The notes below the pieces were generated by a model. That model saw only the letters and a list, made by a program, of their open reading frames with translations, was not told the origin of the DNA and searched no databases. This document shows positions 3,495 through 57,545 of a DNA stretch of 64,000 nt, in pieces. This DNA comes from Octopus vulgaris. Lineage: Eukaryota. The position numbers and the translations under genes are program-made. Location: NCBI GenBank assembly GCA_951406725.2, contig OX597840.1, positions 18,352,001-18,416,000 of the forward strand, written 5' to 3'. Position 1 is the stretch's first letter. Each line of letters opens with the position of its first letter.

Positions 3495-3643
3495 ATATTA
3501 AGGACATTACTATACATAAATGCCTCACGCTAGGAGGGACTCTTGAAGTCACAACTACCATAGTAAACAAAACTATTATGGTCGTTTTGACTTTAAGAGT
3601 CCCTCCTAGCGTGAGGCATTTATGTATAGTAATGCCCTTAATA

Positions 3644-3914: not shown

Positions 3915-4776
3915 GAGATCCAAGGATGAGTACTCTCCAGCGGTATTTGTTCCTCATCATCACTGCCATGTCCTGTGTCTCCTAGCGACCAGTGTCTGTC
4001 CTTAAGGCATCAACATATGTCATCCTTGGTCTCCTTCTTCTTCTGTGTCCGAGTAGAGGATCTCACAGGATCACCGAGTGCAGTATCAACTCTCGATGAC
4101 GGTGAACATATCCATCCAACCTCAGTCTCCTCTCTGTTATTTTCGATCTAACTTTTGGGAGGCTCTCGTACAGCTCTGAGTTCTTCATCTTCAATGTTTA
4201 CTGATTAATGATCAGAACCATCCTCAGCATTCTCGTGTAGCACCCATCCACCATCTGAGTGAGTTTCTTGGTCAGTGTCCAAGTCCCGCACAACAGCGCA
4301 GGCTCCACTGCAGCAACAAAGACACAGATCTTCAGATCTTTACAAAGGTCCGACTTCCATACAGATCTGAAACTGTGACATGCCACCCAGGCTTTGCTCT
4401 TTTTCTCAACTATATCACCCTCTGTGTTTCCAGTCTTTGCTCCCAGATACAGGAAGTCCTCAACCAACTCCAGTGGCTTCCTGTCTACATTCATAATCTT
4501 CTCTGGCTTCTTAATATTCTCTACCAGATTCTTCGCCTTAATTTCATTCATTTTCAGCGCCACACTCATCGACATAGTCTCCACTTCCTGCATCAATTCC
4601 TCTATCTCACTCACAGTGTTTGCCAACAGAAATATGTCATCAGCAAATTCAGCATCTGATATCTTTTTAGTCTTAACCCTCTTGCTTAACCCTACAGTAA
4701 AGCCAGAGTCCTGTTGTTTTTCCAACGCAAGGCGCATACAATCATCCACCACGATGATAAAAAGGTAAGGAGTCAA
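3915..4776 (-). mobile_element. 5'-truncated RTE-clade LINE fragment (RT C-terminal half and C-terminus), decayed
   Basis: ORF 4198-4776: PYLFIIVVD, FADD catalytic motif, FLYLG, WTLTK, RMLRM; downstream GHVHRH...RRRRPRMTYVD typical of RTE C-termini. Confidence 0.88.
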
Positions 4777-5021
4777 TGTATCTCTCAGAGGGAAAGAGAA
4801 GGGAATAATATATATGTATATATATATATATATATATGTATATATTTGAGTAGTAGAATGAATTATCTTGTTATGGATAATTCGGTTAACCGATACCTGG
4901 GTAACAAATTCACATCAGAGAAGACACGTTTGAAGTTACGTGCTTTCGTGTGGAAATTTGTATGTTTTTTTTTTAAATATAAATATATGAAAGAATGGAG
5001 TTGAACGACGAATTAACAAAA

Positions 5022-5120
5022 TTCCTTTATTTTCGACATATGTTTCGAAGGCTGCATATTCCTAATTGCGAAGGAATAAGGAGTATATTATGCCGCTTTC
5101 TCATCAGGAAAAGCAAGGAA
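5022..5120 (-). ncRNA. Type-I hammerhead ribozyme (family H1)
   Basis: Minus strand: TTCCTTGCTTTTC-CTGATGA-GAAAGCGGCATA...TATGCAGCCTTC-GAAA-CATATG-TC^GAAAATAAAGGAA. Intact core, about 11/13 bp stem I, long stem II, palindromic stem III, GUC triplet. Confidence 0.85.
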
Positions 5121-5710: not shown

Positions 5711-5791
5711 TTTCCTGATGAGAAAGCGGCATAATATACTCCTTATTCCTTCGCAATTAGGAATATGCAGCCTTCGAAATATATGTCGAAA
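5711..5791 (+). ncRNA. Inverted second copy of hammerhead H1
   Basis: TTTC-CTGATGA-stem II-GAAA-TATATG-TC^GAAA; 5711-5845 is the reverse complement of about 4978-5111; stem I shortened to 4 bp. Confidence 0.72.
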
Positions 5792-5842
5792 ATAAAGGAA
5801 TTTTGTTAATTCGTCGTTCAACTCCATTCTTTCATATATTTA

Positions 5843-5910
<68 letters not shown>

Positions 5911-6079: not shown

Positions 6080-6486
6080 AATACTACAAAATTAGAGAAT
6101 GGAGAAACATACTTAAATCAGTAAAACATCAACTATCCGATGATACTCAATCCATACTTTAATACACCATTACATATGAGTAAAGGCAATATATAAAATG
6201 AAATGAGATATACAGTAATAGTAAAAGTAAAAAGATAAAGAGATATAAGTAAAAATTTCAAATATAATATGCAAATAAATCAAAACTATTTGCATATTAT
6301 ATTTGAAATTTTTTACTTATATCTCTTTATCTTTTTACTTTTACTATTACTGTATATCTCATTTCATTTTATATATTGCCTTTACTCATATGTAATGGTG
6401 TATTAAAGTATGGATTGAGTATCATCGGATAGTTGATGTTTTACTGATTTAAGTATGTTTCTCCATTCTCTAATTTTGTTGTATTA
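6080..6486. repeat. Fold-back inverted repeat, arms about 200 bp, loop about 9 nt, between TA tracts
   Basis: ...TATAATATGCAAATA-AATCAAAAC-TATTTGCATATTATA...; arms match almost perfectly out to AATACTACAAAATTAGAG / CTCTAATTTTGTTGTATT. Confidence 0.92.
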
Positions 6487-6510
6487 TATATATATATATA
6501 TATATATATA

Positions 6511-7616
6511 GTTATCAGTAACAATATAGGGTGAAATTAATTAATTTGGAATAATCATTAATTACACCAAGTAGATTTCGGCATGTAAAAGCCTCATTCG
6601 AGGAAAGTTTAAGTAATACTAAGCAATTAAGGGTTTAGCAACGAATTGCCTCACCACACACCGAATTTAGAAATAGTAGTCAAAGAGTTATAGCTATTCT
6701 TTCTACTAAAAGGGAGATCTCAGTAAAAACACAGCACTTGAAAGGCAAACACAGACAGGTAAGAGAGAATGAAATGACGGCAATCTATCATACAATTTTA
6801 AGTCACCTACGGACGTACGTTTCGAAATTAAGTTTTGGAAATTAAGGTGTCTTAAAATTGTATGATAGATTGCCGTCATTTCATTCTCTCTTACCTGTCT
6901 GTGTTTGCCTTTCAAGTGCTGTGTTTTTACTGAGATCTCCCTTTTAGTAGAAAGAATAGCTATAACTCTTTGACTGCTATTTCTAAATTCGGTGTGTGGT
7001 GAGGCAATTCGTTGCTAAACCCTTAATTGCTTAGTATTACTTAAACTTTCCTCGAATGAGGCTTTTACATGCCGAAATCTACTTGGTGTAATTAATGATT
7101 ATTCCAAATTAATTAATTTCACCCTATATTGTTACTGATAACCATATTTCATCCCAGTAAATGACCACAGTATCTTGTCTTGGCTACACGCTGGTGGGAA
7201 GGGGTTGGTGACACAAACTTTCATTCACACTTTGAATTTGGTGATACTGGTAACGGCTTTAGATCGCTCTGATACTGAGTTGAGATGATGCCTTCTAGTA
7301 TCTCGAAATTTAATATACAATTATTCATAATTGTAGTGTCCTACGCTGATGAGAAAAGAAGTTGGGTAAGATATAATTATCTAATTCTTATGCTTTCCTA
7401 AAACTTAATTTCGAAACGTACGTCCGTAGGTGACTTAAAATTGTATGATAGATTGCCGTCATTTCATTCTCTCTTACCTGTCTGTGTTTGCCTTTCAAGT
7501 GCTGTGTTTTTACTGAGATCTCCCTTTTAGTAGAAAGAATAGCTATAACTCTTTGACTGCTATTTCTAAATTCGGTGTGTGGTGAGGCAATTCGTTGCTA
7601 AACCCTTAATTGCTTA

Positions 7617-7619
<3 letters not shown>
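6511..7619 (+). mobile_element. Non-coding Penelope-pLTR/retrozyme-like element: inverted arm plus partial tandem repeat (period 583 bp)
   Basis: 6511-6802 is the reverse complement of 6851-7141; 6851-7037 recurs directly at 7434-7619; hammerhead at the repeat junction; both ends abut (TA)n. Confidence 0.75.
7340..7430 (+). ncRNA. Type-I hammerhead ribozyme (family H2)
   Basis: CCTACG-CTGATGA-GAAA...TTTC-GAAA-CGTACG-TC^CGTAGG: perfect 6-bp stem I, intact core, palindromic stem III, predicted cleavage after 7424. Confidence 0.87.
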
Positions 7620-7690
<71 letters not shown>

Positions 7691-7883
7691 AAAGACAAAG
7701 TTTACGAAAATAAACAAAAGACGAAAGCAGGTGGAGTACAAACAAACAAATGTATTAGTATGGTGCTCAGGAATAGAAAAAATCTTTTATATTTCGAGCC
7801 TACGCTCTTCGACAGAAAGATACACAGAAAAAAACAAGGAGAGAAAATATATATATATTTCTTATTTTTATTTTCCTAAAATG

Positions 7884-8048
7884 TTATCCGATGAAGAGAT
7901 GGCGACGTGGATTTCCACCCCGACATCCGAAACTCGGAGTTTTATCATGGCTACCAAATAATTGTCACATATTACATTTACAGATAAATTCTTCTGTTTA
8001 CATAAAATCGAGGTCTCTTTATTCTTTTGTTGTCTTACCATTTCTATC
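7884..8048 (+). mobile_element. Decayed copy of hammerhead family H4 element (core damaged)
   Basis: Aligns to 30208-30365 but CCGATAACTGAAGA is reduced to CCGATGAAGA; GAAACTCGGAGTTTTATC is retained. Confidence 0.7.
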
Positions 8049-12536: not shown

Positions 12537-12855
12537 GAGACCACCGTCGGTCATGACTGACCTTGGGATTGCACCTAGAAAGTTACCCTCTCAGGCACAA
12601 TTCCGGGCAAGGTTGTTTATGGAAGACCAGCAGTCGCCCATGCATACCAGCCTCCCCTCTCCATGCCACCAGTGTTATCCAAGGGAAAGGCAAAGGGGCC
12701 GATACAGCTTGGCACCAGTGATGTCACAACTCATTTCTACAGCTGAATGAACTGGAGCAAAGTGAAATAAAGTGTCTTGCTCAAGAACACAACACGCAGC
12801 CCGGTCCGGGATTCGAACTCACAGCCTCACGATCGTAAGCTCTACGCTATAACCA
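12537..12855 (-). mobile_element. tRNA-derived SINE (family B)
   Basis: B-box GAGTTCGAATCCC on the minus strand, shared central module, tail matching copies at 21205-21446 and 53830-54152. Confidence 0.85.
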
Positions 12856-15320
12856 CCCCATGTAACAACCCATGCAGCATCATCAACTTTCTCGTCCTTC
12901 TATCCAGTATTGATATTTCCTCCTTAGTCCATCTGAGGATGGACGCACTATATCTGACCACCGCAACTGCCCAGATATTCATTGCGGTAATCAAATTTTC
13001 GGAATTCAGATTGGATTTCAACACCATCTTCACCCATTTTTGATACGCCTCGCTGACCTTGACTTTCATTTCTCTGTGTAAAATGTCATCCAGCTCCCAA
13101 ATCCCTAAATATCTATACCCACAATCGTCGGGTTTACCCATGGTCTCTCCTGATGGTAACCGCAATCCTCTGCAGGATGCTTTCTTCCCTCTTTTCATAT
13201 TAATACTGAGCATTTGGTAATCCCAACTTCCATACCGATGTCTTTACAACTCTTCTAGACTGTTTTTGGTCAAAGAATGTATCTTTTTTTCAGATTTACC
13301 AAACAATTTAAGGGCTTCCATAAACAGAATTTGATTCTATGACAGGCTTTTCTTTCTCCCGCCGGTAACCCATCTTAACTTTCCTAAGTGCCATTGTTAT
13401 GAGTATTAGTTCAATTACAAATATTTACGGAGAAAACGAGTCACCTTGGAAGATTCCCTTTTTAATATTAACTTCTCCAAGTACAATTTGGTTTTCCACT
13501 CTTCCATGCTATGCATCAGAAAGTTTGTGATGTTGTCAACAACACCAAACACCTGCAGGCATTCAACGATCCAAAAATGAGGCATCATATCATATGCCTT
13601 CTTAAAGTCAATCCAAGCCGTAGATATGTTCGTATGATGTTTTTTTACAATGCCTCAAAACTGTTTTATCGATGACCAGGTGATCCTTGGCACCCTGAGA
13701 ACTCTTCCTACATCCTTTTTGTTCCCTTGGTAGTATTTCTTCCTGTGCTAGGAAAGTACATGTCTTTGCCGCACATATTCCAATGAGTATCTTCCAGATT
13801 ATATTTATGCATGATATCTTTCATTAAAAGTGTTGTCCTCCAAGTCACCATCCAGCGGGGATTGTACCTTTCTGGACACACTCATTCAATTGGGCTGCTA
13901 GTCTTTAATGCACCGCGTGGCATCTCTTCAGCCAAAAGCCATGAATCCCTTCTGGTCCGGTGGCTTTCCAGTTAGGCATTTTACCCACTTGTTTTTTCAC
14001 ATCACCCGTGCTTATGACAATATTCCTTTGTTTCTTTCTTCCTTGTGATTCTGTCTTGATAGTTCCTATCTATATTGCAGCCCTTCTATGCACCACATTG
14101 TTTCCCCATAAACCGCTCCAGAACTCCTTGGCTTGATTTGCATCAAGAGCAATATTTTCCCCATTGTCTCCTAACGTTCGGAAGAATTGCTTCGGGTTAT
14201 TTTTTTAACTATCTGTTCCCCTCGAACTACTTATTTCTGTTGACAAATATTCAGATCTGTTTTGTCTTTTTGTTTTTTTGCCATGATCCTATGTTTTAAC
14301 TGCTCTATTACTGCCCCAAACCCGATCAACCGTATTTTATATTTCTTCTCTAATTTTTCTCGGTCGGTCCTTTTCCCATTTTTCCAGTTCCCTCCTAACC
14401 ATTGCTCAATTCTTCCTAGATCTTGCCTTACCCGCATCATGTTGCTTTCAATGCGTCATTTTCACCATGGTTCTTTTGTTCCACCATTTTTAGTTCTCTT
14501 AAGTTGTAATTTCTCCTCAGCAAGTAGTGCAATAGCTCAGAGAAGATTCCCTGTTTGTGTTAAGTCTGGATATATTCATCTTTTCTGTTACTTTATTTAT
14601 CATAATCCTATCTACCCGTCTTCACATTCATGGAGATTTCTTCTTCTGGAGCATCCATCAACTCGTTGAGTCGTCTTTGAATTTCAATCAATTCATTATC
14701 TAATTGGTTCATTTCCTCTGCATGTCCACCCACCACAGTATCAGGGTTCACTCTATAACGCTCCTGTTCCTCATCCTTAACAGCCCCATCACCATTTCCC
14801 TGTTCCTCCTGTCTACTCTTCTCCCTGCTTTCAACTCCGACCTCTCTGTTTTTAACTCCAACCATCCTTTGTAGCCCAACCGCAGGGTCTCTCAGACTCT
14901 CACTAATCCGAGATATTTCTACTCCAGTTGAGTGACCCTTCCTTCTAATCACTCTCACTTGGTTCATTAGTTTCTTATCTGACATCGAACACAGGTCCTT
15001 TTCCATCCAAAATTTCAAGATACGTCGGCCTACTCAGCGACTTCTTTCCAGCTTTGCTCTTTCATGACATTCAATAAGTGTATCGAACTCTTCCTTCATC
15101 AACACCGTGTTTTTGCGCACACCGTGTATGTGATCTGTTGTGACATAACGACCGTCCTAGGCCAGATCACTGCCCCTGATGCGGGCGGTTTCGGACGTGC
15201 CGGGCGGGAAACCTTCACCATGATCTGCTATAGCTTCATTCTCGCCGTTAAATCTTTCCTGGCTTATTGCATCAAAATTTCATGAGTCGTTCGTGGGGTT
15301 CTCACGAGAGTTGTTATTGA
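12856..15320 (-). mobile_element. Decayed R4/Dong-clade (RLE-type) non-LTR retrotransposon, N-terminus to RT; 3' part missing at a SINE junction
   Basis: Frameshifted motifs KLMNQVRVIRRKG, GPEGIHGFWLKR, AWIDFKKAYDMMPH, GIFQGDS, YRYLG, and NIWAVAVVRYSASILRWTKEEISILDRRTRKLM characteristic of R4/Dong RT-thumb. Confidence 0.82.
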
Positions 15321-15547: not shown

Positions 15548-15930
15548 TAGTAGCTGTGTGGTAAGTAGCTTGCTTACCAACCACATGGTTCCGAGTTCAG
15601 TCTCACTGCGTGGCACCTTGGGCAAGTGTCTTCTATTATATCCTCGGGCCGACCAAAGTATTGTGAGTGGATTTGGTAGACGGAACTGAAAGAAGCCCGT
15701 CGTATATATGTATATGTGTGTGTGTGTGAGTGTATTTGTGTGTTTGTCCCTCCAACATCGCTTGACAACCGATGCTGGTGTGTTTACGTCCCCATAACTA
15801 GCGGTTTGGCAATAGAGTTCGATAGAATAAGTACTAGGCTTACAAAGAATAAGTCCTGGGGTCAATTTGCTCGACTAAAGGCGGCGCTCCAGCATGGCTA
15901 CAGTCAAATGACTGAAACAAGTCAAAGAGT
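15548..15930 (+). mobile_element. SINE family A, near full length, followed by (TTA)n
   Basis: Same head/body/tail as 3113-3482. Confidence 0.9.
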
Positions 15931-15943
15931 ATCGTTATTATTA

Positions 15944-16049: not shown

Positions 16050-17079
16050 ATTCTTTGATTAATCGTTCGGTCTGCCCCAGCCTCAAGGTTTATCAAAGTC
16101 GTTACGTCGCCATTCGCGAGCTCATCAATGATTTGCATCCTCTTTTCCAAGTTTGCTTCTATGTCTCTTTGTCTGTCTCCAAGTGCAAAGGTTTTATGTT
16201 CATATTGACAGGTTAAAACGACCAGACAGACAGACAGGCAGAAATCAAGCTTAGAGAAGGTAAATCATTGATGAGGTTACGAATGGCTACGATAGGACTT
16301 TGACGAACCTGTAACGGTTAGGATTGATTAGGTACACATTATTATCAAATGTCGGAGTCAGCAGTTGTAACGAAAAAAATTTGTTGTTATAACGGCAAGT
16401 TGCAGGATGTGAAAGATGAACAATGCATGAAGTTTTAAGAAGGTATTTATTTACCGTTAAGCTGAAAACTACCATACCTCGACGGGCAGATTATAACATC
16501 CGAGAGCATGCGAAAGAAAGTTAGATGTGGTAGAATTTTGTTTTTCTTGGCATAGTTTGTTAGTAGTAATACACAGATAGCGATAGATGATGTAAGAGAA
16601 AAGAATTAGAGCTAGTGAAAGTTGTAAGGTTGTGGGACGTTGTCTCACAGTTGCTGACAGTAAACTTCATTTCTCCCTCTTACCAAGGTTCTTGCTGGTC
16701 AGCCAGACTTTGTTGTCGCCGTTGTGATTAACTGGTTGAGTCGTCACCATGTAACTGGACTCGTTGAGTCGTCACTGACTGATTTTTGCTTGGGGTGTTC
16801 TTGCTTTTATAACTATCCAGAAGGATAGACATATCATTGAGACAATAGATTAGTTGGTGGTTTTGTTATCTCTATTCTAGTTTTTGGTGAAGTAGAAGAG
16901 ATTAGAAAGGGTCAAGTAGTGAAGACATTATTTCGGCTTAGCTAAAGGCATCTGGAAAATGTAAAACTGCTGTCAGAAAAAAACCCATTGTTCCACCGTG
17001 GGAAAAGTTCTGTTGCAGTGTTAATTTAAATTTGGCTGTGGTGGATCGAATCCACTTCATGCATGCAAGATTCACTACA
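16050..17079 (-). mobile_element. Probable LTR-retrotransposon relic: 330-bp LTR (16750-17079), PBS-like site and decayed leader/gag start
   Basis: Minus strand begins TGTAGTG, ends GTTACA, is immediately followed by TGGTGACGACTC (TGG-start PBS pattern) and contains TTATAAAAG; no second LTR or pol in the window. Confidence 0.45.
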
Positions 17080-24281: not shown

Positions 24282-24286
<5 letters not shown>

Positions 24287-24724
24287 CATAGGGGCATCAG
24301 CCATCTGAATGTGGCTAGGGACAGGGCAGGGCGGTGGGGGTGTTACTGATGCATTTAGCCCCAGGCGATCATCAACGTCACCAGGAGGGCTGACACCATC
24401 TCGGTGTCCTCTAGCCTGCAAAAGGGAGATCATTCCCCGAAGAAGCGGATGCTACATACGGACCAGGTTTCAAGGTCTTTGCCTATTATCAACGCGAGCG
24501 GTGCTTACCATGCGTTGATAATAGGCAAAGACCTTGAAACCTGGTCCGTATGTAGCATCCGCTTCTTCGGGGAATGATCTCCTTTGCAGGCTAGAGGACA
24601 CCGAGATGGTGTCAGCCCTCCTGGTGACGTTGATGATCGCCTGGGGCTAAATGCATCAGTAACACCCCCACCGCCCTGCCCTGTCCCTAGCCACATTCAG
24701 ATGGCTGATGCCCCTTATGTTATA
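24282..24724. repeat. GC-rich fold-back inverted repeat, arms about 212 bp, loop about 16 nt, starting at a TA tract
   Basis: ORFs 24309+ and 24696- translate identically for 38 aa; arms differ only by a small indel and a terminal mismatch. Confidence 0.95.
24496..24564 (+). ncRNA. Hammerhead-like ribozyme with U3-A8 core variant (family H3)
   Basis: GCGGTGCTTAC-CATGCG-TTGATAA-TAGGCAAAGACCTT-GAAA-CCTGG-TC^CGTATG-TAGCATCCGC; extended stem I, weak stem II (U.U at its base). Confidence 0.6.
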
Positions 24725-30087: not shown

Positions 30088-30303
30088 GTGGCAGTTATTC
30101 GGTAGCCATGATAAAACTCCGAGTTTCGGATGTCGGGGCGGAAAATCCACGCTGGCATCTCTTCAGTTATCGGGCCATCGAAAAAAAATGAACATTTTTT
30201 TCGATTGCCCGATAACTGAAGAGATGCCAGCGTGGATTTTCCGCCCCGACATCCGAAACTCGGAGTTTTATCTTGGCTACCGAATAACTGCCACATATTA
30301 TAT
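30079..30303. repeat. Fold-back inverted repeat, arms about 110 bp, 2-nt loop, carrying two back-to-back hammerheads
   Basis: Centre AAAATG-AA-CATTTT; arms nearly perfect; left end abuts (TA)n. Confidence 0.95.
30207..30277 (+). ncRNA. Type-I hammerhead ribozyme (family H4); mirror copy on the minus strand at about 30105-30175
   Basis: GCCCGATAA-CTGAAGA-GATG...CATC-C-GAAA-CTCGGAG-TT^TTATCTTGGC; near-palindromic stem III, GUU triplet, one extra C before GAAA. Confidence 0.7.
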
Positions 30304-33544: not shown

Positions 33545-34867
33545 TTAGATGAGGAGGGGGGAGAGTTGAGACCAAATGGCGTATAAGAGCGAAGAGAGAA
33601 GATTAATTCCTGTTCACGGCGCAAACGGGAATCCGGATGGCCTCTGTGTAAGGACAAACCGAACACAGATAGGTGTTGCAAGGAGTGACCGGTGGAGCGG
33701 AAATGGTGTGAGACCGGTGTGTCGTTCGCAAGGTGGATGTCACGAAGGTGTTCCACGAACCGGTCAGCCAAGCGGCGTCCCGTTTGTCCGATGTACAAGG
33801 AATGGCAGAGAGAGCAAGAGACGCAATAGATAATATTGCTGGAGGTGCAGGTGAAGGAGTGGATGATGGGATAGGGTCGATGGTGGGTGCTAGTGAGGAG
33901 GGTGGTGTTGGAGAGGTAAGGGCAAGTGCGGCAACGTGGGCGGGAGCAGGGGAACGAGCCGGGTTGGGAGGTAGGGTCAGGGAAGGAACTATGGACCAAA
34001 AGGTCTCGAAGGTTGTGGGCTCGTTTGAAAGAGGGGAGGGGTCGGTTAGGGAAGAGGTGTGAAGTGGACGGGTCGGACTGGAGATGACGGAAAGCTCGAA
34101 GAATGGTGCGTTGGAGACGTAGGGTCGTGGGGTGGTAAGTGAGGGGAAAAGGGAGGCGGGAGACTACAGGGCGGGTTCGGGGAGAGAGAGCAGATACACG
34201 GTCCACGGACCGTGCTCTGGCAAGGGCGGTGTGGATAGTGGTGAGGGGGTATCCACGTAGGGTGAAGTGGTGAGCCATACGTTGAGACTGAGTCCCAAAG
34301 TTATGGTCGTCACTACAGAGCCTACGTAGACGGAGGAATTGGGAATAGGGGATGGAAAGCTTGGTGTGTTCTGGGTGGGAGGAAGAGAAGTTGAGGTATG
34401 AGTGTGAGTCTGTGTGTTTGTAGTGAATGGAGGTGGTAAGAGTGGAGTGAAGAATGCTAACCGAAATGTCGAGGAAGGAGACAGAGGTGTTGGAGATAGT
34501 GGAAGTGAAGTGGAGGGCTGGATGGAAAGATTGGACGAAAGAGAGGAAGGAATCTAGATGTTCACGGGAGAGTGAGGTGGCACCGATAATGTCGTCAATG
34601 TAACGACCATATAGTTCAGGAGTGGGACCAGTGAAATTAGAGAATATTTGGGCCTCAACATAGCCAACGAACAGGTTCGCATAGTTGGGGCCCATTCGCG
34701 TTCCCATGGCCACTCCCGAGACCTGATGGTAGAACTCGCCCGCGAACGAGAAGCAGTTCAGAGTAAGGACAAGTTCGGCCAGACGATTGAGTGTGGAGGT
34801 GTCAGGTACAGGGTTAGAGAGAAGGTCAAGACAGTGTCGAAGGGCCTGCAGTCCTTCGTGGTTAGGG

Positions 34868-34872
<5 letters not shown>
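33545..34872 (-). mobile_element. Penelope-like element (Neptune-type) RT + GIY-YIG endonuclease ORF, 5'-truncated, reading frame uninterrupted
   Basis: IPNHEG, GVAMGTRMGPNYANLF, RYIDD, FLD, YKHTDSH.YL..SSSHP, Cys linker CSRPRCRTC, NIIY..SC..C...YIGQT, RF.EH, HF, PFGLN; 5' end abuts (TA)n; the ORF track's extra N- and C-terminal residues are SINE/microsatellite read-through. Confidence 0.95.
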
Positions 34873-38278: not shown

Positions 38279-38392
38279 AAATAATAGTTATCGCCATACT
38301 AATATGGCATTCTTATAAAAATAAGAATAAAGCTGTCCGCTTATTCTTATTTTTATAAGAATGCCATATTAGTATGGCGATAACTATTATTT
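38279..38392. repeat. Perfect 52-bp-arm fold-back, 10-nt loop, between TA tracts
   Basis: AAATAATAGTTATCGCC...AAGAATAA-AGCTGTCCGC-TTATTCTT...GGCGATAACTATTATTT; single-arm copy at 48931-49011. Confidence 0.95.
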
Positions 38393-38740: not shown

Positions 38741-39142
38741 ATGGCTGCCCCCTCCTTATCGAGTATGACCATTGCACGAAGCTTAACTGTTATTGGTGCT
38801 GTGATCGAATGTGACTTTTTAGCCCAGCTAAAGATCTACAATGTCTTGTACAGAATTGGCAGCTAAAACCTTTACCGGTAATAGCCGGCTGTAGTTGTAA
38901 CTGGGCTTCATGTACCTTTGCATGTCGTTTAAGTCCTCCTGCCGAATTACACTCTCTTCCACATGCCCGACAGATATGATTAGTATGGTGTGTCACACCA
39001 CCACCAGTGGCCAGGCTGTCACTCATCTGTCTCGCTTTATTACTACGAAGATGACTCATGAGTCCAGCTTTACTGAGGCAGGGTCTTGCACAGATATTGC
39101 ATGTCAGAATCAAAGGAAGACCCTTCCCTTCTGGAAGTGTAA
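38741..39142 (-). mobile_element. LINE-like 3' fragment encoding three C2H2-type zinc fingers (second copy 55847-56118)
   Basis: CNIC..AGLMSHLRS, CRAC..GGLKRHAKVH, CQFC..AGLKSHIRSQH, then stop and short UTR; two copies share the 3' end and differ in 5' truncation. Confidence 0.7.
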
Positions 39143-39261
39143 CACATACATACATACATACATACATATAGATATATACTTTTATAAAAGCATTCGTCGG
39201 TCAGTTGTGATCATACTAGATTAAAATTGAGATGGTACATTTAATATAATATTAGGTATCA

Positions 39262-43617: not shown

Positions 43618-44877
43618 TATTAGATTGTTTCACATCAATTGTCGTATTTGAAAGTTAACAATAAAATGTTTCAGAAGTGTTGGAGAACTGATTTATTTAA
43701 TCAAAGTATGATCCATGTTCATTTATGACGTTTACCCAACGTTTCTCTATCTCATATATTCCATCTTTAAAAAAAAAAAATTCATCTTTTGCTGTGATGT
43801 CCGAATCTTTTGCATCTTTTGTCCGAATGCTTCAATTACCTCTTCTCTATTTAAGAATGTCTTATTGCGTATGAAAAGCTCAAAATGCTTAAATAAGTGA
43901 TGATCAGTAGGAGAGATATCAGGGGAATAGGGAAGATGTTACAAAATCTCATAATTCAGGCTTTGCAACTTTGGGACCATAGCTTGAGGAGTGTGAGGAT
44001 GTGCATTGTCGTGGAGCAAAATTGCGCCATCTCTATTCACTAGTCTGGGTCGCTTCTTTTTCAAATTCTCATGCATACAATCAATTTCCTGGCAATGCGA
44101 TGTTCCTGTTACCGTTTTTCCTTGTTGCAAAAACGAATAATGAATAACTCCCTTCGCAGACCACCATACAGTGACCACTAACTTTTTAGGGTAAATGGCG
44201 GGTTCGGGTGGTATTTAGGTGACTCTCTTACATCTAATCACTGTGTTGTTCTCCTGCTATTGTAAAAAAAGTATCCATTTCTCGTCACAAGTAATGATTT
44301 GATGCAAAAATGGTCTTTTTCCAGTCGAGAAAGCAATAAGGAGCACACTTCGAGCCTTTGTTTTTTATAAATTTCGATGAGTTGATGTGGAACAAACCTA
44401 TCTGTTTTCTTGACTTTTCCAATTTTTTACAGGTGTCCAAAAACAGTTGAGTGAGATCTTTGGAGTTCTGATGAAGTTCTCCGATTCTGTTCAACTAAAG
44501 CATTTAACTCATCATGCCGAATAACTGATTTTGGCCTACCCCTTGGTCTATTTTCAAGACTATCATCTCTTGAACGAGAGCTTTGGAACCATCTCTGAAC
44601 AGTTCTGATGTCAACAAAACCATTACCAAAGGCCCGCTTGATATTCCGTAGAGCTTCTGCAGCATAGTGACCAAGTTTGTACTCATACGAGAAAATAACT
44701 CAACATAATTTGGTTGTTATCATTTTTATAAGGTCTGTGGGTACGAATTTTGTATACCAATATTGTTGAGAAAGAAAAAGAGTCAGGATTAAACGCAAGG
44801 TATACATAATTGAGTTTTTAAATGACTGAAATAACAAGTAATTAAAAATGTGATATTTCATGTGGAACAACCTAATA
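43618..44877 (-). mobile_element. Full-length (about 1.26 kb) decayed mariner transposon
   Basis: TIRs TATTAGATTGTTTCACAT / ATGTGGAACAACCTAATA with terminal TA; transposase remnants MVTVWWSAKGVIHY, LLHDNAHPH, PYSPDISPTD with stops and frameshifts. Confidence 0.92.
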
Positions 44878-49465: not shown

Positions 49466-49652
49466 CACATACTTTATAATTAGGGTTCAGCAAAGATTTG
49501 CTTTACCACATACCGAAGTTTAGAAATAGCAGCCAAAAAACCTTAGCTATTTCTTCTACTTTAAAACGGGACTCCCAGAAAAACCAAAATACTTGAAAAT
49601 AATCCACACAGGCAGAGAGGAAAAATAACGAAAATCAATCAATATCTGGTCA

Positions 49653-49735
49653 CCCATGGACGCGCGTTTCGGAATTAGATCGGTATAAAGAATATAGAAT
49701 TATACTTAACCAACCATTTTCTTCATCAGCATGGG
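49653..49735 (-). ncRNA. Type-I hammerhead ribozyme, diverged relative of H2
   Basis: Minus strand CCCATG-CTGATGA-imperfect long stem II-GAAA-CGCGCG-TC^CATGGG; flank 49478-49580 resembles 6625-6720. Confidence 0.8.
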
Positions 49736-49978
49736 ACTCCAACAATATTAAATATTGAAATATTAAATTCAAATGTACTGGAATAATTGAACATATCTCT
49801 CCACCTAACGGTATCAGACAGATCATATTCAGTGTTAGTACCGCCGAATTCAAAATATGAATGAGGTTCATCACCTTCTCCTGCCCATCCGCGCGTGTCG
49901 TCAAGTAAAATACTACAGAATAAATTATTAATCATATATATATATATATAAATTAAAACAGATTAGGAGATCGAAAAT

Positions 49979-50021
49979 CCACCTGACGAATGTCGTTGAA
50001 GACATGAAACGATTGTAGTGG
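49979..50021 (+). ncRNA. Compact type-I hammerhead ribozyme (family H5)
   Basis: CCAC-CTGACGA-ATGTC(GTTGAA)GACAT-GAAA-CGATTG-TA^GTGG: all three stems and the full core, GUA triplet. Confidence 0.85.
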
Positions 50022-55846: not shown

Positions 55847-56118
55847 ATGGCTGCCCCCTCGTTATCGAGTATGGCCATTGCACGAAGCTTAACTGTTACT
55901 GGTGCTGTGATCGAATGTGACTTTTTAGCCCAGCTAAAGATCTACAATGTCTTGTACAAAATTGGCAACTAAAACCTTTACTGGTAATAGCCGGCTGTAG
56001 TTGTAACTGGGCTTCATGTACCTTTGCATGTCGTTTAAGTCCTCCTGCCGAATTACACTCTGGTGTGTAACACCACCACCAGTAGCCAAGTTGTCACTCA
56101 TCTGTCTCGCTTTATGAC
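55847..56118 (-). mobile_element. Second, shorter copy of the zinc-finger LINE-like 3' end, flanked on both sides by (CATA)n
   Basis: Near-identical to 38741-39040 with a ~29-bp deletion. Confidence 0.75.
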
Positions 56119-57050: not shown

Positions 57051-57545
57051 TATTGGGTTGTTCGGAAAGTTGGTGCCGATTTACAATAGCTTACCTTTCG
57101 ACTTATTTCAGAACATGGTTGAGTCTGGTGGGATTGGAAAGGAATTCTGTTCAATGAGCTTCTTCCAAGTAACCAGACAATTAATTCTGAGAAATACTGC
57201 ACGCAACTGGACGAGTTAAAAGCAGCAATTCAAGAGAAACGTCCAGAATTGGCCAACAGGAAAGGTGTTCTTTTCCAAAATGATAATGCAAGACAGCACG
57301 TTTCTTTGGGAACCAGACAAATATTGCTGCAGCTCGGCTGGGATGTGTTACCCCACTCTCCATATTCACCAGATATTGCTCCTTCGGATTTCCACTTGTT
57401 CAGGTCTCTGCAGAATAGTCTTAATGATAAAAATTTCAATTCCTTTGATGACGTAAAAAGATACCTCGATTAATTCTTTGCCAAGTTAAAGGAAAGATGG
57501 AGACACATTGTGCAACAAAATGATTGATATTTGGTTGATTGAAAA
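57051..57545 (+). mobile_element. Internally deleted mariner relic (C-terminal catalytic region)
   Basis: TIR-like TATTGGGTTGTTCGGAAAG; VWWDWKG, FQNDNARQH, HSPYSPDIAPSDFHLFRSLQN. Confidence 0.88.

Follow-up and report, generated by a model that had tools for sequence, protein, structure and literature searches.

Within a window of 64,000 nt of the Octopus vulgaris genome (contig OX597840.1; all coordinates below are those of this window), a sequence with a period of 583 nt and a predicted hammerhead ribozyme lies head to head with an inverted arm, and the locus raises the question of what kind of RNA templated the insertion and which machinery carried it out. The reading that we favour, with confidence somewhat above even, is that a short multi-copy hammerhead unit was mobilised in trans by a Penelope-like element, with priming at two ends on a cut linear template longer than one unit.

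The direct part of the locus is composed of a near-complete unit of 583 nt (6845-7424, + strand; 36% G+C) followed by a tail (7425-7620, + strand) that runs into the right (TA)n tract at 7618-7691. Comparison of the repeats showed that 6845-7037 and 7428-7620 are identical over 193 nt except for a single mismatch (6850/7433), the perfect stretch beginning at 6851/7434, as the original prediction had it. Its placing of the repeat start 3-10 nt downstream of the predicted cut also stands, as the first direct unit starts at unit position 4, or at position 10 if a perfect match is demanded. Counted from the cut, the direct part covers unit positions 4-583 and then 1-196, i.e., 1.33 units with one complete ribozyme; the name tandem monomer that the locus had been given was therefore right as to the period of 583 and overstated as to the tandem. 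Complete hammerheads in at least two consecutive units were not found at the locus. With 1.33 units and one complete motif it does not amount to an array and is unable to release a monomer on its own.

The inverted arm, for which about 290 bp had been predicted, is longer. The segment 6511-6808 pairs with 6845-7142 over 298 nt except at 6677 and 6803, and further pairing of 6616-6841 with 7395-7620 carries the whole arm from 6511 to 6836/6841, about 331 nt, its inner part being the complement of 7395/7400-7427 out to 6836/6841. The arm is thus an inverted 5'-truncated copy (6511-6841, - strand) of unit positions about 554/559-583 and then 1-301. As predicted, it carries the 3' half of the hammerhead (6806-6836, - strand, pairing with 7400-7430), composed of GAAA, helix III, the cut site and the 3' strand of helix I, and it lacks CTGATGA. 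Both outer ends of the locus are sense 3' ends and both meet (TA)n, the left one at a tract (6485-6510) which is likely half of the target site; only the right-hand merger had been noticed before. Microhomology with TA is limited to a possible 3-4 nt at these two ends and, because (TA)n stands on both flanks, a target-site duplication is unreadable. The head-to-head junction (6837-6846, overlapping the direct copy by 2 nt) contains a 9-nt duplication in which 6824-6832 appears again at 6838-6846, presumably the scar of end-joining.

The predicted hammerhead (7340-7430, + strand) pairs helix I at 7340-7345/7425-7430 and carries CTGATGA at 7346-7352, a 60-nt helix II domain, GAAA at 7413-7416 and a helix III made by the palindrome CGTACG (7417-7422), with the cut predicted after 7424. 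The CUGANGA and GAAA cores, the UH cut site and the order of helices I-III are those of type I. A strict ribozyme pattern matched twice in the window, at this hammerhead and at that of a relative near 49 kb, and in none of 100 shuffles, and a relaxed scan found five motifs compared with one in 30 shuffled windows. No Rfam hammerhead reached the gathering score anywhere in the window, and none of the 17 Rfam matches obtained at 6500-7700 with E up to 10 was a hammerhead, those to miRNA families reflecting the inverted repeat only; the long helix II is the likely explanation of the absent Rfam match. Pattern scans of metagenome contigs (two scans), genome contigs and viral contigs gave no matches, and a search of the text supplement of PMC8557442 for four ribozyme motifs of the window found none of them.

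Folding predictions suggest that the ribozyme needs a dimer. In both window copies, i.e., the 583-nt unit and a relative at 49 kb, part of the core is paired in the lowest-energy fold, which is predicted to be inactive, and the active monomer fold lies above that one by 3.6 kcal/mol (unit) and 4.2 kcal/mol (relative). The 8-bp duplex which helix III would form between two copies is predicted at -9.8 kcal/mol for the unit and -13.3 kcal/mol for the relative. As modeled, this pattern is in line with PMC4209133 (in the text available), which describes motifs of Penelope-like elements that depend on a dimer. A G-U-rich stem predicted at 7165-7230/7440-7510 encloses the ribozyme in both copies, and the 5' end of the relative is near the start of this stem.

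The relative itself (49478-49925, - strand) is composed of an upstream part of about 265 nt, a hammerhead and a tail into (TA)n, and is identical to the unit at 216 of 309 alignment columns (70%). It starts near unit position 320, and its tail stops in (TA)n at the same unit position as the main tail. Its helix I differs by two changes, each on both sides, and its helix III is formed by another sequence that is still palindromic. A further paired change, at 7340/7430, was seen in rows sharing a depth of 35.7 in one of the sequencing runs compared below (X7), which we infer to be one contig. Judged by the compensatory changes, the ribozyme is conserved between the locus and the relative. Back to back with the relative, over a (TA)n tract, lies a short hammerhead of another family (49979-50021, + strand).

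Other hammerheads and fold-backs are present in the window. An inverted pair of 135 nt with 99% identity (4977-5111 and 5711-5845) carries outward-facing type I hammerheads 600 nt apart, with long helix II and palindromic helix III, the right copy having one change in helix III. A fold-back at 30088-30294 holds a pair of hammerheads that face outward, with 76 nt between the start of each arm and its cut, and a single related copy with an altered core (7892-8032) lies just to the right of the 583-nt locus. Near-perfect fold-backs beside (TA)n in which no hammerhead was detected occur at 3497-3642, 6081-6484 (adjoining the left TA tract of the locus), 24286-24720 and 38279-38392; these may represent similar elements inserted as tails only. 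The window is also rich in microsatellites and contains an abundant SINE-like repeat of about 380 nt (15549-15931) with many copies, often by (TA)n, remnants of Mariner-type transposases (43942-44699 and 57123-57470) and of LINE-type reverse transcriptases (4201-4914 and 12845-13654), and C2H2 zinc-finger exons (38793-39143 and 55899-56093).

The spread of the family was addressed by comparing 6800-7430 with contigs from four of the 24 listed runs, representing four studies and three organism codes. The numbers of matching contigs per run were 2308, 1478, 1309 and 144, most of them 90-99% identical, and all 29 bins were covered in all four runs; on this comparison the family is diverse and multi-copy. 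The X7 sequences are contigs, taken to be RNA by guess only, and say nothing on strand, ends or circles. With bridging defined as at least 31 letters on each side, the 32 listed pieces (out of 5301) bridge at least 484 of 525 positions. These include 7142-7172, the link between the tail and the upstream part of the unit, in runs X6 and X7, where the bridging contigs near the link show 3-11 differences from the window and the X6 contig crossing the zone has a depth of 343.5. Strict bridging of 6998-7038 was seen in none of the listed pieces, the best having 29 letters on its short side. The original prediction had named the terminus of a long coding element with no monomer periodicity as the finding that would count against it; as the tail-to-upstream link is bridged in two of the four runs, the contigs support a short unit and not the end of such an element. 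Since it is variant contigs that cross 7142-7172, the link is a trait of the family, and from the sequences compared the 583-nt cycle most likely is as well. No listed piece spans a whole unit, so that the tiling speaks for adjacent links and not for whole units or arrays. The joint of 7427 to 6845 was present in three of the four runs and variant joints in all four, and it is uninformative because any tailed copy would show it.

The contigs also revealed recurrent 3' ends, both outer ends of the locus being seen again in other copies. Among the 24 loose ends listed (out of 273), X7 has ends that run into TA behind 7037 (at least one contig) and 7140 (at least three contigs), and X3 and X6 have such ends behind 7025. 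On the upstream side, two of the contigs listed depart from the unit, with 323 (X3 record 16) and 403 (X7 record 27) unread letters beyond it. In each of the four runs 6866-7129 had a greater summed contig depth than 7152-7393, a measure which cannot rank parts of the unit. At the 12 tabulated polymorphic sites that they cover (40 of 63 rows listed) the three tail tracts of the locus agree without exception, and at nine of these sites at least two of three runs show the window letter as the minority, judged by contig depth. That the three tracts share one haplotype indicates one recent event, and these letters point to a locus that arose as one young insertion from one source haplotype.

The unit gave no sign of coding capacity. 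No Pfam family was detected in any of its three sense frames, and the database-wide protein searches, which covered two of these frames, returned just two weak phmmer matches to repetitive proteins (E 1e-4) for one frame and, for residues 1-100 of the second, nothing at E 10 among 147 candidates. A tblastn search of the unit with 100 Penelope-like proteins, all relatives of one lineage (104 were found, and four over 1100 aa were left out), had zero matches. An N-terminal profile made from 34 of the 100 proteins scored 0.3 bits on the unit, a value equalled by 64 of 300 shuffles. The Pfam, phmmer, tblastn and profile searches lent no support to a supposed likeness between the tail and the N-terminus of Penelope-like ORFs. 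A decayed ORF remnant may be present in the unit, as far as its sequence can tell; a single ORF with reverse transcriptase (RT) and GIY-YIG between pLTRs was not found at the locus by the protein searches of the unit. At 33571-34869 (- strand) there is a 5'-truncated open Penelope-like ORF of 433 aa with RT, the linker cysteine motif and GIY-YIG, the start of which directly adjoins a (TA)n tract; it was missed by the Pfam scan, and among its 104 longer relatives identity reaches 56%. This ORF shows that such proteins exist in the genome and does not imply a partnership with the 583-nt unit. No autonomous partner with the same termini was found in the window; a low-copy coding parent of this kind is possible and would be expected.

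Under the favoured reading, a Penelope-like RT/GIY-YIG protein acting in trans would cut the (TA)n tract, and both broken ends would prime internally on a linear RNA longer than one unit, the 5' end of which was likely produced by the predicted ribozyme cut. The first cDNA would start at about unit position 196, cross an uncut ribozyme and copy a full unit to position 4, and the second, from about 301 on the opposite end, would halt 25-30 nt past the ribozyme junction, after which end-joining, leaving the 9-nt duplication, would connect the two cDNAs head to head. A stop 3 nt from the cut better fits a linear cleaved multimer because a circle is without an end, the association with the cut being that of a single 5' end, 3 nt off. 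Against this, five other 5' ends with a ribozyme were measured in the window, at distances of 25-266 nt upstream of the respective cuts; 5' ends at the cut would escape detection, as no ribozyme would be left to detect. A more-than-unit-length template, as the original prediction proposed, is supported, but the locus does not favour the circular form that it had allowed. More tentatively, this compact, young and very high-copy unit could record the Penelope reaction in the genome, a dimeric protein priming both strands at two fixed internal sites of an RNA which is cut at its 5' end by the hammerhead and retains an uncut internal hammerhead. A purified Penelope-like protein is reported to nick and extend both strands of AT-rich DNA and to begin at two preferred sites within the RNA, its main substrate being uncut RNA; in the available text of that report, cleavage is unnecessary for insertion and no RNA-seq ends map at the cut (PMC11167929).

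Among the alternatives, a covalently closed circle of 583 nt as the template, as in the cycle of animal non-LTR retrozymes, with the stop at position 4 owed to structure or chance, survives best, and we consider it unlikely. The contigs close the unit into a 583-nt cycle, but the joint that does so is expected for any Penelope-like copy bearing a tail. The low G+C and a circular fold of -146.9 (versus -117.8 +/- 5.3, z -5.5) would suit a circle; the linear fold is equally stable (-153.5), and one of six control regions had a stronger z. The stem at about 7165-7230/7440-7510 would hold the cut ends together in both copies, although it is G-U rich and based on two sequences. Circles of 150-400 nt have been demonstrated for coral, mussel and axolotl repeats (PMC7229834, in the text available), but a circle has no 5' end, and for one end under uniform truncation a halt so near the cut (10 nt or less) would be a coincidence of about 2% (10/583). 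Moreover, copying at the locus covered 1.33 units only. A degenerate inverted repeat (68%) at 16086-16310 is behind a strong folding score in one control region.

Other origins of the inverted arm are rather improbable, whether self-priming by fold-back (perhaps from an antisense template), a DNA rearrangement after insertion or an artefact of assembly. Antisense-template self-priming has been proposed for head-to-head Penelope inversions (PMC3846280, in part), the window holds several near-perfect fold-backs at (TA)n, and none of the listed contigs spans the junction at 6837-6846. Against this, each arm has next to the junction sequence that is absent from the other; the inverted one crosses the ribozyme junction and goes on to position 301, a path missing from the direct part, which makes a simple fold-back unlikely. 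Its end is also a site used by other copies (the loose end at 7140), and it has two mismatches of its own and the 9-nt junction duplication, unlike a read fold-back. Least probable is that the locus is the terminus (pLTR and tail) of a long coding Penelope-like element, the period of 583 coming from local joining of the tail to a 5'-truncated end: the start of the relative near 320 and the arm end at 301 make a junction near 7145-7165 plausible, two listed contigs run upstream out of the unit and dual ribozymes on opposite strands 100-700 bp apart are known in truncated elements (PMC4209133, in the text available), but variant contigs cross the 7145-7165 zone in X6 and X7 and the protein searches of the unit detected no ORF remnant.

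On its own the locus is an ordinary case of a known layout. PMC8557442, in the text available, calls it unclear what role hammerheads play in Penelope-like elements, and whether animal retrozymes insert from a circle or a linear multimer has so far been a matter of hypothesis. Both questions become testable with a short family whose copies include many young ones and have fixed 3' ends and a mappable cut site. Should 5' ends pile up at the cut genome-wide, as the more tentative reading would have it, they would be the first in vivo footprint of the role of the ribozyme and would speak for linear cleaved multimers, and against circles, as the template from which retrozyme-like units insert.

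No description of the 583-nt family was found in the literature searched; repeat databases were outside this scope, and the family may be catalogued already. The text available of PMC6962438, which counts Rfam hammerheads in a squid, has nothing on it, while the supplements of a preprint (10.64898/2026.07.22.740005) list families which could include relatives of the unit. That preprint, in the portion available, argues that retrozymes of 51-972 bp are non-autonomous Penelope-like derivatives. The unit resembles animal non-LTR retrozymes, for which circles have been demonstrated, in being short, non-coding and multi-copy, with a type I hammerhead and a G+C content under 45% (PMC7229834, in part); its 583 nt fall within the range of the preprint, and coding Penelope-like elements co-occur. 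It departs from retrozymes in having one complete ribozyme where the preprint's 'active' class needs two consecutive ones, a 60-nt helix II domain in place of the canonical 4-bp helix II, and the layout of inverted arm and tail.

Non-autonomous Chlamys elements such as MRC1 share with it pLTRs and head-to-tail insertions; these are green algal and mostly without canonical hammerheads, according to the accessible text of PMC8557442. In architecture the locus agrees with the EN+ Penelope-like elements (Penelope/Poseidon, Neptune and Hydra), which have hammerheads in their pLTRs (comparison drawn from the available parts of PMC4209133, PMC8557442, PMC3846280 and PMC11167929). It is without their RT/GIY-YIG ORF between repeats, and its tails reach 196 and 301 nt past the cut compared with an extension of 30-40 bp. 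It shares with them a partial tandem with an adjacent inverted 5'-truncated copy, a tail past the ribozyme, internal preferred 3' ends, a palindromic helix III and, in the 49-kb relative, a bulged base after the core. Circular templates yielding more-than-unit copies were already proposed for such elements (PMC4209133, in the text available). The partial tandem, inverted 5'-truncated copy, tail and bias for (TA)n microsatellites are the standard Penelope-like layout (PMC8557442, legend of Fig. 2; PMC3846280; both in part), and because the locus has this layout, the unit is likely a small parasite of Penelope-like elements.
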